This document shows positions 1 through 23,439 of a stretch of DNA of 64,000 nucleotides, piece by piece; positions within the stretch are counted from its first letter, which is position 1, and each line of letters starts with the position of its first letter. Below the pieces are notes generated by a model. The model did not search any database and was not told the origin of the DNA. It saw only the letters and a program-made list of their open reading frames with translations. This DNA comes from an uncultured Planctomycetota bacterium (GTDB taxonomy: Bacteria; Planctomycetota; Planctomycetia; Isosphaerales; Isosphaeraceae): assembly GCA_963823665.1 (NCBI GenBank), contig CAWGMQ010000010.1, positions 1,856,001-1,920,000 of the forward strand, read 5' to 3'. The position numbers and the translations under genes were made by a program.

Positions 1-1242
1 TCGGCGACAATCTCATTGAAGATTGCACCGTCGCCGGGCTCGGCGCCGCCGAAGTGGAACCTTTGTGGGACGTGGATCTGGTCGAAGTCGCGGATCAGCG
101 CCGCGATCCTCGCGGCCGGGTCGCCCCCGCGCGGCGGGACGGGCCCGCGCGGTGCTTCCTTGGCCCGGCGCTCCTGGTCGGCGAGCAGCTCGGCTAGCAC
201 GTTCGCGTTTCGCACGTAGGCCGGTTGCAAGAGGCCCCTGTTGTGATTTGCATTCGGCTGTGGATCCAGCGGCCCTGCCTTCGCCGGGACGGCCTGGCGG
301 TAGCGGTCGAGCCGGCGGGCGGCGTCGAGCGCGACGACGTCGTCTCCCCCGCAGTGAGCTGCGATGAGACGCAAATAAAGCGTCTCCGCCCATCCACGCG
401 AAAGGGAAGGGAAGCTGATGATCTCATCCGCCACGTCGGGACGTGCGTTGTCGGGGGTCCAGGTGGTCGCGGCCGCGTAGAGCGACTCGGCGAGGTCGGC
501 CCGGCCCATCCGGAGGAGCATGCAGAGCGTCAGCGGTGACCGCGGCACGGCCGGTGGCGGCCAGCGAATTTCAAAAAACGGCGAGATCGGGTCGCGGTGT
601 TCCGTCATGGTCCCTTTCCCCACGTTGGGGGTGCTATATTCGAGGAATTGCGGCGACTCGCGACTCTTTTTCAGAACGAGTGCCAGCGCCTGGACGTCAG
701 AATCCAGGTCTACGTTTGCGCCGACGGTGCGCCGCCGGATGCACCAGGCCGTCCCACCCGACGACGAACCGGCCGGCCACGCCGGGCCGCTCTGGAATGA
801 TGAATCCTCGAATCTTCTCCACCCCTCGCCCGTCGTCGACCTCGACCTCCCGATAGTCGCAGCCGCGAGGGTCGGCGGCTTCCAGCTCGAAGAGTGCGGC
901 GGTTGCGTCGACGAGGGAACGGGGAAGCTTCGTCGCCGGGGGCGTCCACGGCAAGCCCCGGCTCGGCGGGTCGGGAATGGTCTTGCCCGCGAGCCTCTGC
1001 GCTTGCCGTTGCGGTTCCGGGCCACGTTCCCCGTTATCGGTGATCGGGAGCTGGGCCTGGATCAATGGGTCGGGAATCTCCGTGCCCGCGACGTTTCGGG
1101 CCGGCTTGACGATCTCTCCCCCGCATGCGACCAGGAGCAACAACGTGGGCAAGAGCCAGCGCGTGACGGTACAGTCTCGGTGTGACGGCCTCTGCCTGAT
1201 TCTCAGGGAATTCGTCGCCATTTTCCTGTGTCTCCCTGTCAT
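1..1242 (-). CDS. Large putative lipoprotein/secreted hypothetical protein, paralogue of 1272-4628; runs off left edge; frameshift near 730
   Basis: ORF 697..1242 (LLLLVACGG...GKTIPDPPS...AADPRGCDYREVEV) aligns with the N-terminus of the 1122-aa ORF. After a 1-nt shift near 730 the homology continues (GRADLAESLYAAATTWTP...IRDFDQIH) to position 1. Confidence 0.8.
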
Positions 1243-1271: not shown

Positions 1272-4200
1272 CTACTTGTCGGGCTCAATGATCCAGAATT
1301 CCAACCGGTTGGTTGTCCCTTCACCGATCCCCGATTCGGCTCCGAAATTCACTTGCAGCCAGTATCCGCCAGGCTTGAGCCCGGCATACCAGTCGTTCAA
1401 GTCGACCCGCAAAGCCTCGAAGGATTCGGACGGCGCCAGCATCCGGGCCGCGTTGCCGGGATCGAACTGCTCCGTCGGCATCGGTTTCGGAGGCGGGGCG
1501 GAACGGGCACGCAGGAGGGCTTGATCGTCGGGATCGTCGGGACGCTTGTTCAAAACCAGTGACACTCCCCGGCGCAGAGCGGGCTTGCCGTCGGCCCCTG
1601 CGCGGATGAACTCCGTCGGCGCCGACTGCTCGATTCCACGAACATTGTACAAACGAAGCATGACGACGACGGGTTGGCCGGGCTGGAACACGGCGACGGG
1701 GGGCTCGGCCGTCTCGAGTCGTGCCGCGAGGCCGCCCGTCAATTTCAGCCACAACTTGCGGTCGGGCGAGAACTCGATTTCCGAGGCCGGCACACGGGCA
1801 ATCGTCGCATGCCCGACGAAACCGAAATACCGCTCCCAGCGGTCTCCCTTCTTCACTTCCTCCGACTGCCAGACCCAACCGTCCTGGAGAAAATCGCCGA
1901 GGCCCCGAAACCGGCTGGTACTGTGGTCAACCGGGAATGACTTGAGCGCGAGCCAGCGGGCGCGCACCGGATAGCCTGCCGCCAGCGGCGCGGCGCGGGA
2001 CTCTCCCTCCGCGGTCAACGAGAACACGGCGTGGCCCTCTCGGACGTCGTCGGGAGTGGCCGGGTGTGCGAGCGCCGGGAAGCGTAGATAGGCGACCGGG
2101 TTGCGGAAGTTGGGCTCGCCCGGGATGTATTCGGCCGCGAAGCGCGGGCCGTAGCGCCGCAAATACGCGGCGCACGCGGTGATGGCCGCGTCGCGTCGCG
2201 CCTCGGGCCAGGTCAGTGAGCATTCGGGGGCGCCGTCGAGCGCCGAGATCTTCCACGCGACATAATCGCACGTGCGCATGGGCACTGCGACCCCTTGCCT
2301 TTCTGCGGGATCGGGAACCCGCACGTCGGAGAAACCACCGTTCTGACCCGACACAAGCGTGTACTGAACCACGCCGCGCGGCTGTCGCACTGCCGTTCCT
2401 ACCTTCGCGTTGTCGGCCAGGGCGGCGAGCAGGGCCTCGCGGTACGCGGGAACGCACACCAGTGGCGAATCGATCTGGTCCATGTACTGATGATCGCGCC
2501 GGCCCTCTTTGACCGGAACGAGCGGCAGCCAGTGGGATTGCGGGTCGACGAACATCGCGTGCGCGGCCTTGGACAGCGCCGGGTGGTCCGGGTAAGTCCA
2601 CAATGGCTCGAGTGCGTCACGCCAGTCGTGTTCGATCGTTTCCGGTTCGATAAACTGAACCCATGCGGCGTATTCGTCGAGGGACTCGCGGTCACCGGCC
2701 CGAGCGCGCACGATCGTGAATTCGGCGATGTAGTGGGCGTAAAAGCCGGACTGCGACTGCTGTGGGTCGAGCGACCGTTCGCGGCAGGCCGTCATGAGTG
2801 ACTTGATTGTGGGCAGCGACGCGACCTCGTCCCACCAGGTGAACCTGAGCGCAAGGTTGCAGGCTTCGAGCAGCTCGGCCCGCGCCTTGCCGGTTCCTGC
2901 CATCTCCTGGCAACGACGGGTGAGTAGCTCCGAGACGGTGGGGCTGCGCAGTTTGCGAAGCGGCTCGCCGCGTAGCGCGCCGGGCTTCGGCTGCCCCGGC
3001 CTCCTCACGGTGAAGTAGCCCGTCAAGGAGGGTGGGACGCCGGGTGCCTGAATGAGGCTCGACGCTGCCTCGATCCAGCGGGCCGGGCCGGCGGAGTCGT
3101 CGCGCAGGCTCCGATACCAGCGCTCAACCAAGGGTACCGAGGCGTTCTTCTCCCAGAACGCGCGGGCTGCGTGCGCCAGGCGTTTGCGGCCCTCAGCAGT
3201 CTCTAATTCGGCGTGGTCGGACCCGTCGTCCAGGAAGCGCTCGGACTTGAGGAGGCGCTGGAGCGCGGCGTAGACGGCCAAGTTGACCGGCCGCGTGTGG
3301 TCGATCCCCGAGCGGCTAGCAATGCAGCGGGTCAGCCTGGTGTCCGATTCGAGCGCGGCCAGCAAGGGGCCGACGGCGCGGTCGCCCTCGGCAACCACTT
3401 CTTTGACAATTTCGCCGGTGCCGGGGTTGGGCACGGAGTTGTGGAAAATTTGCGTGACATGAATCTGGTCGAAGTCGCGGATCAGCGCCGCGATCCTGGC
3501 GGCCGGGTCGCCACCGGGCGGCGGGACAGGCCCGCGCGGTGCTTCCTTGGCCCGGCGCTCCTGATCGGCCAGTAGCGCCGCTATCGCATTTGCGTTTCGC
3601 ACGTAGGCCGGTCCCAGAACGAGCAGGCGGCGCGGTGTCTTGGGCTCAGCGGCGGGCGCGCCTGGCTTCGCCGCGAGGGCCTGGCGGAAGCGGTCGAGCC
3701 GGCGGGCGGCGTCGAGCGCGACGGCATCGTCTGCCGTGCAATGAGCTGCGATCAGCCGGGAGTAGACGGTGTCGGCCCAACCACGCGACAGGGAAGGGAA
3801 GCTGATGTTCTCATCCGTCAGGTCGGGGCGTGCGTTCTCAGGGGTCCAGGTGGTCGCGGCGGCGTAGAGCGACTCGGCGAGGTCGGCCCGGCCCAGGCGG
3901 AGGAGCGTGCAGAGCGTGAGCGGCCCACGCGGCACGGCCGTCGCCGGCCCGCGATCGTCGAAAAACGGGGAAATCGCTTCACGGTGTTCCGTCGTCTTCC
4001 CGGTTCCTACGCTGGTGGACCGATATTCGAGGAATTTTGGCGACTCGCGGCTCTTTTTCAGAACAACGGCGAGGGCCTGGACGTCGGACTCCAGGTCTGC
4101 TCTTGCGCCGACGCTGAGCGCCGGACGCACCACGCCGTCCCATCCGACGACGAACCGGCCGGGCACGCCGGGACGCTCTGGCATCACGAATCCTCGGGCC

Positions 4201-18984: not shown

Positions 18985-21396
18985 TCATCGCTCCAAGTTT
19001 GGTTGTTTTGCCGTACCATTCATCGCCACGTACGCCTGTCGCCTGCCATTTGGGCTGAAGCGGAGTGTGTCGAAGAAGACTCTCTCGAACGGCGGTCTTT
19101 CGATCCGCTCGCGCTGGCGGCGTTCTCGCTGAATCAACTTATCCTTGAACGAGGCGGGATAATCCCGACGAATGCGCTCGCGAATCGCGCTCTGCTGGAA
19201 GCCGATGAGACAGGCATCGACGGCGCAAGACACGGCCAGCACCGCGAAAAAACAAATGATGGCCAGCCGGATGGCGGATGGCCATCGCGTCGGCGGATCG
19301 GCGAAACGCCGCCGGGCGACGACCAGGAACACCGCACACAGCGCCGCCAGCATCACGGCGACGGCCGCTCGGAACGTACCCGCGAGGATTCGGACCGGCT
19401 GGAGGATCTGGTGTTCAAGCACAGGAACCGCTAGCAATCGCGACAGGACCATCGGCGAGCCGCCGCTGATCTTCTCATTCAAGTCTCGCATGAACACGAT
19501 CAGCGTGTCGTTCTCCAGGAAGAAGAAGCCGACGAGCGCGACCGCGAAAATCGCGAGCAGGACCACGCCTACGCGAAGGGCGTACTTCAGCACGCGAAGT
19601 ACGTACTTCAGCCACCGTCCAATGCCGATCGTCGCCGCGAGCAAACCGGCGACCATCGCGAAGACCGTGGCCAGGCTCACGAGAGTGTACCACTCGACGC
19701 GGAGCTTAAACGCGGCCCAAGAGAGCAGTTCGCCGGTCCGTTTGTGGCCGGGCGCTTGCGCGGCGAACGACTCGGCCAGGGAGGCCGCGGTGCGGCCGTC
19801 GATCGGTTCCCCGAATCGGCGGAACGTCTCGAAGTAGAGCGCACTGTTCCGCAGCTCGGGATCTTTGGTCGTCTCGAGGACCTCGCGAATTTCGGCGTAA
19901 GCCACGCCCCCGTGACCGAACATGGTGAGCGAGGCCCAGCGCTCGGGCAAGTAACGGGCCACGCGCGGATCCTGGGGGTACGCCGTTCGCAATTCGCCGA
20001 CGAGTGCGGCGATCCGGTCGTGAACTCGCCGTCTTTCATCCGCCACGCTGAGGCCGACGAGGTTTCTGACCGCGTTCATGATCGAGATCTTGTCGATCTC
20101 CGTGAGCTCGTGGGGAGGCCACCGGGTCGGGAGCAATTGCTGAATATAATCGACCCAGGTGTTTGTGAACCGTTTCGCAGGGGAGTCCAGCACCATCTTG
20201 CCCTCGAGGTCGAACATCCGTAAGTAGAGGGCATGATTCACATCGGCGACGATGAAGAGGCGGTTGCCGGCTGACGGGAGAGCGTTCAGGTCGGTGACAT
20301 TCCGCATCAATCGGAGCTCGCCGTCGGCCGCGTATCCAATCCCTGGTTTGGTGGCCGTTGCGAGCGCCGCCTCGATCTCCCTGACAATCTCATCAGCCGG
20401 CCGGTGCCCGGCTGCTGAGTGCGCGACGGCGAGCGATGCGAGCGCGGGTGCTCGTCCGGCGTCGAGATCTCGAGCCGGGTGTGCGCGCACCGGTCCTGAC
20501 GCCGATCCCGGCTCCGACCGCGGCCGCGGCGACCGCGAGCAGCAGCAGGACCGCGGCAGCAACCTTGAGCTTGAACATGACCGCTGGCGCAGGACCGCAT
20601 TCATCAGTGAGACGGCTGCCGCGGGGATTGACGCGACCCCCGCTTGCGAGCCGCTGCCCATTGCGAGTCGCATGGCGGCCTGGATGGTCGCGGCGGCGAG
20701 CGGTTCGGAAACGGCCGCCCGAGCTCCGTCCGTGGCCAGCAGCGCGACCATCGAGCCGGCGGTCGGTGCCATCCCGCGGCGGACCAGCCGATTTTTCAAG
20801 AGATCGCGGGCTCGCGAGAGCCGTCCGCTGACGCTACCGACCGGCCAGCGCAGCCGTGCGGCCGCCTGGGCGTGGGTCAGGCCCTCGAGATCACAGAGGA
20901 GGATCGGCACCCGGTACTTCTCCGGCAACCGGCTCACTTCCTCGTCCAGCGCCGCCAGCAGCTCCACCCGGCCGGCGGGAGGTTCCGAGGCGACAGGATC
21001 GAATCCGAGCGGTACGGACCGCTCGCGGTCGCGCTCGGAGCGCGCCAAAGCCTTGGCGGCGACTCGTCGGGCCACGCCGTACAGCCAGCGGCCGAGGGAG
21101 TCTTCCACCCGGACCGATCGAGCCCGGCGCACCAGGACGAGGAACGTCGCCTGAAACGCGTCGTCAACGTCGTTCGGGTCGGTCAGGGCGCACCGGCAGA
21201 CGCCCAGGACCATCGGCCCATGCCGCGCCACCAGGGTCGCGAACGCCAACTCGGCGGCGACCGCGGCGTCCTCCGCCGCGTCACTCCGGGACAGGAATCG
21301 ATCCAGCAACTCCGCGTCGGAAGACACCCCGGTCACGCCCGCGCCAAAGAGCGTGCGGACGTGATGCAGCAGTCCCGACGACTGCACCTTCGCCAT
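18985..21396 (-). CDS. ECF sigma-70 factor with TM and extended C-terminus; two compensating frameshifts (about 20585 and 20490); 3' end probably truncated
   Basis: LVARHGPMVLGVC...DDAFQATFLVL and LCDLEGLTH..AA..L.WPVGSV..RL.RAR. The TM helix MFKLKVAAAVLLLLAV lies in another frame. Confidence 0.85.
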   Translation of the reverse strand: MAKVQSSGLLHHVRTLFGAGVTGVSSDAELLDRFLSRSDAAEDAAVAAELAFATLVARHGPMVLGVCRCALTDPNDVDDAFQATFLVLVRRARSVRVEDSLGRWLYGVARRVAAKALARSERDRERSVPLGFDPVASEPPAGRVELLAALDEEVSRLPEKYRVPILLCDLEGLTHAQAAARLRWPVGSVSGRLSRARDLLKNRLVRRGMAPTAGSMVALLATDGARAAVSEPLAAATIQAAMRLAMGSGSQAGVASIPAAAVSLMNAVLRQRSCSSSRLLPRSCCCSRSPRPRSEPGSASGPVRAHPARDLDAGRAPALASLAVAHSAAGHRPADEIVREIEAALATATKPGIGYAADGELRLMRNVTDLNALPSAGNRLFIVADVNHALYLRMFDLEGKMVLDSPAKRFTNTWVDYIQQLLPTRWPPHELTEIDKISIMNAVRNLVGLSVADERRRVHDRIAALVGELRTAYPQDPRVARYLPERWASLTMFGHGGVAYAEIREVLETTKDPELRNSALYFETFRRFGEPIDGRTAASLAESFAAQAPGHKRTGELLSWAAFKLRVEWYTLVSLATVFAMVAGLLAATIGIGRWLKYVLRVLKYALRVGVVLLAIFAVALVGFFFLENDTLIVFMRDLNEKISGGSPMVLSRLLAVPVLEHQILQPVRILAGTFRAAVAVMLAALCAVFLVVARRRFADPPTRWPSAIRLAIICFFAVLAVSCAVDACLIGFQQSAIRERIRRDYPASFKDKLIQRERRQRERIERPPFERVFFDTLRFSPNGRRQAYVAMNGTAKQPNLER

Positions 21397-21488: not shown

Positions 21489-21980
21489 ATGTCCGTGCAG
21501 CGTCCCTCGACGGGTAATCTAATGGGGCTCGTGGCCGTCGCAGCTGCGAATCTGTTTCTGCTACGGCAAGGTATCACGCTGCTGCTTGGAAAACCGCTGT
21601 ATCTCTACCTGTTCGTATCCCTGAACATGGTTCTCATCCAGGCGGTCGTGCGCGGGAAGCCGCTCGGGCGCTCACACGCGAGTTTTCTGATCTTGGCTGC
21701 CATCTCTACCTGGCTCTGTACCTGGCTCTGCGACCAGCCGCAGATGTTGCGCGGTGTGAAAGCCATGTTGTACTGGTATCGCGAAGCGACCGGCTACTTG
21801 CCCGCGTTCTACTCCGCTGGGAGGCCCGGCTTCGATAAAAGGGTCCGACTTACGTTAATCGTGGTAAGTTTCATATTATCTGCCATCGCGGCCGCCGTTG
21901 TCGGATCGCACGGCCGCGGGCGGGAGACTCAACTTCCTGGTAGACGGCTCTCGTCCTCTTCATCCGTGACCGCGTCTTGA
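21489..21980 (+). CDS. Membrane hypothetical protein
   Basis: ggagg SD and four hydrophobic segments. Confidence 0.7.
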   Translation: MSVQRPSTGNLMGLVAVAAANLFLLRQGITLLLGKPLYLYLFVSLNMVLIQAVVRGKPLGRSHASFLILAAISTWLCTWLCDQPQMLRGVKAMLYWYREATGYLPAFYSAGRPGFDKRVRLTLIVVSFILSAIAAAVVGSHGRGRETQLPGRRLSSSSSVTAS

Positions 21981-22035
21981 TTCACGGTGACGTTGTGCGG
22001 CTTCGCGAAAAGCTCCTGGTGGAGTTCCCCCCCGT

Positions 22036-22064
22036 TTGACGCCCCTCCCTCACCCCTGTACAAT
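22036..22064 (+). promoter_or_regulatory. Sigma70-type promoter
   Basis: TTGACG (22036-41), 17-bp spacer, TACAAT (22059-64). Confidence 0.7.
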
Positions 22065-22070
22065 CCACCC

Positions 22071-22192
22071 TCGCGTACAGGACGCACCCAGTCCGCGGAA
22101 AGGGTAGAAGCCCACCTGCTTGTTGCATCGCCATACGAACCTTCTTTCGGCCCGTTATGCGGACACCGGGCGCACACGGAAAGAAGGTTGCC
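22071..22192 (+). ncRNA. Candidate cis-regulatory 5' leader RNA with SD-sequestering stem and pseudoknot
   Basis: Exact reverse-complement pairs: aaccttctttc 22138-48 with gaaagaaggtt 22179-89; gcccg 22150-54 with cgggc 22167-71; loop gcggac 22159-64 with gtccgc 22091-96. Confidence 0.6.
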
Positions 22193-23439
22193 ATGTCTAC
22201 ACACTCCGAAGAACCCGCGCGCCAGCTCCCGGCGAACCCCGACCTCCGTCATCTCAAGGACCAGGCCAAGGACTTGCTCAAGGCTGGTCAGGCCCAATCA
22301 CTGGCCAAGGCGCAGTTCCAGATCGCCAAGCGGTACGGGTTCGCGAGCTGGGCCAAGCTCAAGGCACTCGTCGAATCACTCCAGCTTGCCGGGCAGCTCA
22401 AGCTAGCGATCGACGCCAACGATCTGGCGCTGGTCAAGCGCCTCATGACACGCCACCCGGAGCTGCACCGCGCTCCACTCGGCTACGGCAAGAACGGGCC
22501 GCTCACGTGGGTTGCCGAATGCCGCGTGCCGCGCGTGCCGCCGAACGAGACACGGCTCGCCATGGCGCGCTGGATGATCGAAAACGGCTCCGACATCCAC
22601 CAAGGTGGCGACGGGCCTCTCATGCGCGCGGCGCTCGACGATATGAAACTCCCCATGACCGAGCTTCTTGTCGCCCACGGCGCCGACGTGAACGCAGTCT
22701 GGGGCGGAACGTATCCCATCATCCTCGCCCCGCTCGAGGCATTCGCGCCCGGACCTTGCAGTGGCTGCTCGACCACGGCGCCAACCTGCACGTGGCCAAT
22801 TGCGACCCGATCGAGATGCTCACATGTATCTATTCGCGAAGGGCCAAGGAGAAAAACGCGTGCTTCGAGATCGTCGGCGCGGCCGGCTTCGCGCTGCCGG
22901 ATACTCCGGTGATGGCACTGCACCGCGGACGGCTTGACCTGCTCCAGGAGCACCTCGACCGCGACCCGTCGCTGCTGGAGCGCCGATTCACTTACCGCGA
23001 GATCTTCTTCAATCGCGACGGCGCGCCGGGTGATGCGTATCCCGCGACGCCCGTGTCCGGCGGCACGCTCTTGCACCTGGCGCTCGAGTTCGACGACATC
23101 GACGTGGCGCGCTGGCTCATCGAGCGGGGAGCGGACGTGAATGCCCGCGCCGCGAACGAGGCCCTTGTCTTCGTGGGCCACACGCCGCTCTTTCACACCG
23201 TCGTCAACCTGGGGTCAATGGGCCGGGGAGACGACTCAAAGGCGAGGCTCCTGCTCGACCATGGCGCCGACCCGAACGCCCGGGCGAGCTTCCCGCACGA
23301 GGCCACGTTCCACGGCAACGCCCCCACCGAGGCGCTTCACGACGTCACGCCCGTCGGCTATGCCCGCCGGCACCCCGACCAAGGCGTGGTGAACGCCCCG
23401 GCGCTCGCGGCGATCATCGAGCGCGGGGGGAAGGAGTGA
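22193..23439 (+). CDS. Ankyrin-repeat protein with small N-terminal helical domain; frameshift near 22755
   Basis: RQLPANPDLRHLKDQAKDLL...AQFQIAKRYGFASWAKLK followed by ankyrin motifs (TLLHLA, GADVNAR, HTPLFH). ORFs 22157..22912 and 22120..23439 join. Confidence 0.85.

Follow-up and report, generated by a model that had tools for sequence, protein, structure and literature searches.

Riboswitches of the SAM-II, preQ1 and SAH classes, which are held in Rfam, act on translation through a pseudoknot that occludes the SD sequence. The leader described here, which consists of the approximately 120 bases ahead of an ankyrin-repeat gene in a 64,000-nucleotide stretch of planctomycete DNA (the whole of which we call the window), resembles these classes in its compact pseudoknotted 5' domain, its conserved junction bases, its SD helix and its presence in several phyla, but it differs from them in having no Rfam match at E <= 5-10, no metabolic gene context in common and a strict link to one protein domain. 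A second design is that of the 5'-pseudoknot standby systems, in which timP is reportedly grouped with tisB. As presented in PMC7708055, tisB mRNA has a 5' pseudoknot and a single strand upstream of a sequestered ribosome-binding site, and its likeness to our leader is one of layout only; unlike tisB, the leader is about 120 nt long and is predicted to start at the promoter, its product is a long repeat protein, and it would make a loop-loop contact to the SD hairpin.

A third design is found among ribosomal proteins. According to PMC10931766, S15 (uS15) and S4 (uS4) stabilise pseudoknots in mRNA and repress their own translation, and pseudoknotted autogenous operators include those of E. coli rpsO (uS15) and the alpha operon (uS4), along with the long-range pseudoknot of bL20. 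Our leader, like these operators, is a pseudoknotted 5' leader that includes or overlaps the ribosome-binding site and immediately precedes the gene for the protein presumed to bind it. Unlike them, it has a non-ribosomal partner with neither a known primary RNA target nor a fold match, it combines two pseudoknots with many paralogs per genome and with unrelated fused cargo, and in sequence it matches none of the leaders in Rfam. The 'protein binding candidate' class of PMC11109978 stands with these operators among the nearest known systems. Double-pseudoknot cis-regulatory RNAs that extend across several phyla are rare finds.

Rfam 15 was searched with 20 homologous loci, which gave six weak matches, none of them at the strand and place of the motif. 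Within positions 21500-22700 of the window the sole Rfam match has an E-value of 1.5 and lies off the motif, in agreement with the initial annotation of this DNA, which had been unable to assign the leader to a known family. Rhodopirellula-1 and Solibacter-1 (PMC2864571), which are not in Rfam, were considered and rejected, the first rows of their alignments being unlike the motif by eye, and when eight supplementary files were searched with two of the motif's core words, nothing relevant came up. We found no description of the leader in the literature searched, including the main texts of PMC2864571, PMC5737381, PMC8632094 and PMC11109978, and a word search of the main texts of the preprints 10.64898/2026.10.21.760802 and 10.64898/2026.09.15.751765 likewise gave no leader description. 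The supplements of PMC5737381, PMC8632094, PMC11109978 and the preprints may list the motif, above all the first preprint, which reports 1.52 million unnamed motif clusters. The leader is a real RNA family, uncatalogued in Rfam 15 and in the literature searched, and most likely a variant of the autogenous operator. Specifically, we consider it moderately probable that the three-helix domain of the leader's own product binds this RNA and represses translation.

Fold of the leader and covariation among its copies

The predicted elements of the leader are bounded by a promoter-like site on the 5' side and by the start codon of the ankyrin-repeat gene on the 3' side (Table 1). Two promoter-like sites were found in positions 21500-22700, compared with 0.2 in shuffles, and the near-consensus promoter given in the initial annotation is present as stated. 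Also present are the other elements listed there: the 11-bp stem over the SD sequence (P4), the inner 5-bp stem whose loop is complementary to an upstream strand (P5), and the gggt-agaa-gccc hairpin (P3). From the position of the promoter, transcription is predicted to start at about 22071-73, the first base of P1. A TANNNT hexamer lies, by eye, 6-9 nt upstream of P1 in 33 of 46 aligned copies, and because of this placement the RNA probably begins at P1; it would then span the entire 5' UTR. The linker ahead of P4 is a possible ribosome standby stretch.

Table 1. Predicted elements of the leader and of the gene behind it, in positions of the window
Feature	Positions	Strand	Description
Sigma-70-type promoter-like site	22036..22064	+	-35 TTGACG (22036-41), 17-nt gap, -10 TACAAT (22059-64); 10/12 consensus
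P1 hairpin	22073..22085	+	22073-76/22082-85; 97.3% of cells paired, double changes in 3/4 pairs
P1 loop	22077..22081	+	Supplies the 5' strand of pseudoknot 1
Pseudoknot 1	22078..22118	+	22078-81 (CAGG)/22115-18 (CCUG); encloses the junction with P2 and P3
P2	22088..22098	+	2-bp stem 22088-89/22097-98, displays loop 22090-96; 99.5% paired
Pseudoknot 2 (loop-loop)	22091..22164	+	22091-96 (GUCCGC)/22159-64 (GCGGAC); 99.2% paired
P3 hairpin	22102..22113	+	22102-05/22110-13, variable loop; 100% paired, double changes in 3/4 pairs
Linker	22119..22137	+	Variable in length and sequence, without conserved pairing in the alignments
P4	22138..22189	+	Anti-SD 22138-48/22179-89, over SD GAAGG (22183-87); 89.8% paired
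P5	22150..22171	+	22150-54/22167-71 inside P4; displays the 3' strand of pseudoknot 2
Ankyrin-repeat gene	22193..23439	+	Start codon ATG 22193; two frames, the first ending after 239 aa as assembled
N-terminal three-helix domain	22226..22390	+	About residues 12-66; first helix basic

Folded alone, the window leader has a z-score of 0.07, no better than shuffles, and chance alone would give a 6-bp complementary pair with this spacing 0.94 times per window; neither single-sequence folding nor pattern statistics rise above chance, and both were rejected as proof of structure. It is only through comparison with homologues that the predicted structure exceeds chance. For this comparison we used 101 distinct copies from 100 loci picked for diversity, and a shuffle control that ignores relatedness, applied to an alignment fitted to five nested helices. 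At the 37 pairs of the fold, 94.3% of the cells are paired, compared with 86.7% in shuffles; double changes are seen at 31 of these pairs, compared with 13.7 in shuffles; and none of 500 shuffles matches any measure of the full fold. Sliding the pairing partners, as a control, lowers pairing to 33-53%, and further alignments of leader copies give the same covariation picture. On this comparative evidence, the leader is a conserved RNA motif with a predicted fold of five nested helices and two pseudoknots, and the window copy, which scores 128 bits with the covariance model, keeps all seven helices. The structured, SD-covering leader with a kissing pseudoknot that the initial annotation had proposed is thus upheld by covariation, in a more complex form with two pseudoknots. 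P1, P2, pseudoknot 1 and the frameshift in the gene, described below, are elements beyond that annotation.

Pseudoknot 1, which is absent from the covariance model behind the alignment, covaries strongly on its own: 84.7% of its cells are paired, compared with 70.7 ± 1.3% in shuffles, and 89 cells carry double changes, compared with 34 in shuffles (0/500 shuffles). Double changes also occur at both pairs of P2 (in six and one of the 101 sequences), at 10 of the 11 pairs of P4 and at four of the five pairs of P5, which is 98.6% paired. No fewer than 97 of the 101 copies retain each of the inner eight pairs of P4, whereas the outer three persist in about half to three quarters. Pseudoknot 2 is mostly invariant, with a double change at four of its six pairs, in one sequence each, and with one further double change noted by eye at locus L350. 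The junction of the leader holds conserved unpaired bases. At locus L203, two divergent genes about 70 nt apart each have their own leader and domain (651-806, minus strand, and 876-1012, plus strand), and in one of the two leader copies pseudoknot 2 shows a double change.

Occurrence of the leader and its association with an N-terminal domain

Homologous loci were sought with the first 188 codons of the gene as query, and of the 344 related loci the 80 best were taken, the closest among them being labelled Singulisphaera (89%). The titles of related loci name Planctomycetota, Acidobacteriota, Armatimonadota, Gemmatimonadota, Proteobacteria and others, and the orthologues are mostly ankyrin proteins of about 400-430 aa. 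The motif is present in 75 of these best 80 loci, so that the homologous leaders are conserved as well as covarying, as expected under the initial annotation. Of the five loci without the motif, one (L045) lies on a contig that stops at the start codon; a second (L014) has lost the 5' end of the gene, and with it both leader and domain; a third (L019) has a decayed leader of 29 bits and acidic residues in place of conserved basic ones; and the remaining two (L025 and L088) have an intact domain and a leader reduced to its SD end. Within the source genome the leader precedes the window gene and both of its paralogs, which are all three of the domain genes, and is found nowhere else. A search of that genome with a 12-base pattern was discarded as unspecific (32 matches, compared with 22 for the reversed control).

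A covariance model of the leader (R1), built from 58 copies, matches 9 of 151 Planctomycetota genomes, 7 of 41 Gemmatimonadota genomes and 4 of 41 Acidobacteriota (Vicinamibacterales) genomes, one match in the last set, in genome G367, being taken as chance. Among carrier genomes that were chosen as such, five of five have the leader, in up to six copies each, and a match at L153 is due to chance. This G367 match has no domain behind it and falls within a reading frame that contains a Walker A-type stretch. We also scanned metagenomes with a DNA pattern alone, using no protein, which gave at least 120 stretches. Eighty loci were fetched, and 74 of them contain the 75 model matches obtained; the other six have no model match even with filters off, one of them being in unrelated sequence. 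Another of these six, at L183:880-985 (minus strand), is a decayed leader remnant that keeps both pseudoknot-2 strands and the anti-SD and has lost the SD and P1, and no domain gene is seen behind it.

The 75 matches that were found from the RNA first allow the association with the protein to be read directly: by eye, the first helix of the domain follows in 73 of them, and in the other two the locus edge comes after 2 and 9 codons. Across the 41 Gemmatimonadota genomes, the genes marked by the RNA model and by the domain profile are identical: 17 genes (17/17) in 7 genomes, six of these genes having contributed to the domain profile. All 21 strong domain matches in the five carrier genomes lie behind an RNA match, most of these domain matches being already in the profile. 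The 41 Acidobacteriota genomes hold 12 domain genes, 10 of which have a leader: seven through the genome-wide RNA match and three further ones on reading (L347, 44.8 bits; L349, 14.9 bits; L350, by eye), where the leader is full or diverged and had been missed by the filter. One of the 12 genes (L348) has an intact-looking domain and no leader, and one (G353) was assigned to neither side. At L302, the N-terminal copy of the domain is absent and no leader is shown. Judged from these sequences, RNA and N-terminal domain go together near one-to-one, whatever cargo follows. The tie between the leader and a small N-terminal helical domain, which the initial annotation had pointed out, is thus borne out, and of the two binding partners it had put forward, the domain and a ligand, the domain seems the better one on co-occurrence alone.

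The same association might arise if the leader were a protein-free or trans-controlled device, with the pseudoknots and the linker either making up a ribosome standby site, which would hold translation from a sequestered SD at a low rate or postpone it, or being the target of a common cellular factor, and with the domain co-spreading as part of a 5' cassette. We regard this as unlikely, since the leader is not seen before unrelated genes in the 75 RNA-first matches. Such a device would also leave unexplained the joint retention of leader and domain among domains that are only 30-69% identical to the one in the window, as well as the joint decay in L019, which is one case, and the gene encodes a large repeat protein where tisB-type leaders precede a small toxin. 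What speaks for it is that a 5' pseudoknot and a single strand upstream of a sequestered ribosome-binding site are the tisB design (PMC7708055), that no ON fold covaries, as described below, and that some intact domains have no leader.

Of 105 downstream proteins, 44 were scanned for cargo. Ankyrin repeats were found in 25, LRR in one, WD40 in one and T2SSF plus T2SSE in one, and no family was found at E 1e-6 in the other 16, many being shortened by the locus end; among 120 listed homologues, one has a beta-lactamase-family domain. At L129:1-1506 (minus strand), in an A/T-richer genome, leader and domain are fused to T2SSF and T2SSE (pilus/secretion ATPase), which is the clearest case of unrelated cargo.

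This cargo bears on the ligand-sensing RNA that the initial annotation had offered as its other idea, namely a riboswitch in which the 5' double-pseudoknot domain would have a small molecule or an ion as its ligand and lock or free the SD helix, the protein domain serving the same response. The presence in several phyla, the two pseudoknots, the conserved unpaired junction bases and the SD helix all fit the criteria for 'sophisticated' RNAs in PMC5737381. However, the 44 proteins, which are repeat proteins, a secretion ATPase fusion and unassigned sequences, have no common metabolic or transport theme, the RNA occurs almost only directly ahead of one domain, and the sister domain has another leader. 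We consider a riboswitch quite unlikely. If the domain does not bind, the RNA would be a strong orphan riboswitch candidate.

The three-helix domain and the leaders of its sister families

The domain is modelled with helices at residues 18-30, 37-48 and 53-65 (pLDDT 75.7), and 11,273 clusters, formed at 50% identity, contain it (E <= 0.001). It is a homologue of the N-terminal segment of PF20066 ('Glyoxalase_8') and of the N-terminus of NCBIfam PRK05973, a 'DNA helicase' that it matches weakly. PF20066 scores 18.6 bits on the domain of the window, under its cut-off of 23.7, whereas an HHalign comparison of the domain with PF20066 N-domains gives 97% (E 7.8e-11); among 60 domain members, 24 match PF20066 and 17 match PRK05973 at E <= 0.1. 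Because it is homologous to PF20066 yet below the Pfam cut-off, we class the domain, by profile comparison, as a sister family of PF20066, the genes of which differ further in carrying another leader. A search of a literature library found no publication that names PF20066.

Most of the top-scoring proteins (P0121-P0270; L299, L301, L297, L303 and L338) have two or three copies of the domain, and the internal copies are without the proline-rich N-terminal lead-in. One ankyrin protein (L296) has a copy at its C-terminus. Searched by fold, neither a 66-aa model nor a 163-aa tandem model gave a match at E <= 0.001 (best Z of 4.2 for the former and 3.9 for the latter), and none of the known nucleic-acid-binding proteins came up as a fold match. 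In a PDB sequence search the best match had an E-value of 0.019 (chain JUBO2), followed by designed helical proteins. Kinship to LOTUS/OST-HTH, raised by one weak Pfam match, was rejected (HHalign 4.7%, with three sequences only).

PF20066 loci were sought in 121 genomes of one class (that of a genome labelled Rhizomicrobium), and all 11 loci found there have a different conserved leader, which covaries. In this PF20066 leader the loop of a 5' hairpin pairs downstream, and two helices, one of 4 bp and a long-range one of 6 bp, are arranged in pseudoknot order; double changes are seen at 8 of 15 pairs, and no shuffle attains the pairing level. The PF20066 leader was noted at L304-L314 and L343, about 150 nt upstream of the gene (for example L310:1355-1500, plus strand). 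Its cargo is, by eye, glyoxalase-like, Lon-N-like, ClpX-zinc-finger-like and other. The PF20066 leaders have no Rfam match, and the models of the ankyrin-type and PF20066 leaders, when searched against each other's RNAs, each miss them. Of 17 further genomes, two have both the PF20066-type RNA and the domain, one of them being a held-out genome in which leader and domain stand side by side, and the other 15 have neither.

A third leader that looks structured is common to two PRK05973 genes (L340:2330-2200 and L341:2345-2215, both on the minus strand). In these two sequences a C-rich strand has its complement, by eye, both in a G-rich strand and in the SD region, and neither leader has an Rfam match. 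Downstream of the PRK05973 gene of L341, on the opposite strand, lies a near-threshold Rfam match to SorX (1293-1358, plus strand; 46.1 compared with 46.6 bits).

Distinct domain subfamilies with distinct leaders would be the expectation for co-adapted RNA-protein pairs; cassette descent would give the same. Tentatively, we propose a superfamily of RNA-protein pairs in which a three-helix RNA-binding domain has subfamilies that would each recognise their own pseudoknotted leader, the whole being a portable self-limiting cassette. At least two covarying leader classes appear to be part of it, and a third is hinted at. Were this reading true, it would supply natural orthogonal repressor-operator pairs for self-limiting, possibly cross-paralog, translation.

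Proposed control of translation and the gene in the window

Sequence comparison shows the helices, both pseudoknots, the SD pairing, the placement from promoter to ATG and the domain link. As in an autogenous operator, the structured RNA lies in the gene's own 5' UTR and its structure overlaps the ribosome-binding site. In the autogenous reading that we prefer, transcription would start at P1 and the 5' domain (P1, pseudoknot 1, P2 and P3) would fold first, after which pseudoknot 2 would dock it onto the P4/P5 SD hairpin. With the protein absent, the A/U-rich P4 would breathe, or be opened from the unstructured linker, and the gene would be translated; as product builds up, the domain would clamp the docked fold, the ribosome-binding site would be shut and translation would drop. 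Promoter, leader and domain would together form a portable self-limiting module on varied cargo, and paralogs, of which there are up to six per genome, might cross-regulate.

The joint loss or decay of leader and domain at L302, L014 and L019 counts for the autogenous reading. Against it count the negative fold searches for a nucleic-acid-binding relative of the domain and the intact-looking domains without a leader at L025, L088 and L348, as does the adjacency of leader and domain, since a duplication of the 5' end would carry both without any interaction. The second internal domain copies found in many proteins may point to another role.

The weak point of the autogenous reading is the translated (ON) state, because the candidate pairing is without covariation and there is no shared alternative fold. 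Segment 22098-104 resembles the SD and could pair with the anti-SD. This ON pairing is formable in 94% of cells, but it was rejected, as it shows no covariation (168 of 500 shuffles are as high), and 12 folded transcripts, 11 of them ending before the SD, have no common alternative fold. The translational switch between two folds that the initial annotation had envisaged has this as its sole candidate ON pairing and therefore finds no backing in the alignments. The SD helix is the default predicted fold, so something must open the SD, and this, along with the tandem internal domain copies that are common, would suit a domain that binds the RNA to activate translation or to some other end, such as positive feedback, mRNA anchoring or co-translational assembly of the cargo. 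We judge such a role highly improbable: all seven helices are compatible and are conserved together, which suits a ligand-stabilised closed state, and a closed default with positive feedback would need a primer.

Under the autogenous reading, the leader names its own candidate ligand and is therefore open to a direct test, with one 60-residue domain, one 120-nt RNA and natural compensatory mutants. If the domain binds, it would represent a new RNA-binding family, and the N-terminal segment of PF20066 proteins, which looks mislabelled, would gain a function; autogenous control, known mostly from ribosomal proteins, would then be seen at work in soil bacteria as a module shuffled among ankyrin, LRR, WD40 and ATPase genes.

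The ankyrin-repeat gene of the window has one base missing near 22747-50 in comparison with an intact 416-aa orthologue (P0023), with which it aligns at 89% over residues 1-186 and at 81% over residues 187-416. Relatives in sequencing run X4 have one base more at the frameshift site; the DNA contigs compared there come from relatives or are short, and none spans the break for this strain. An assembly error, as opposed to a pseudogene, is plausible because one of the two paralogs (G000:C3) likewise breaks frame. The N-terminal domain is encoded upstream of the frameshift and would be made either way. A divergent gene for an ECF sigma factor with a long membrane-type C-terminus lies at 18985-21396 (minus strand), and a part of it at about 20400-20600 reads better in another frame, a change that suggests more indels in the assembly.
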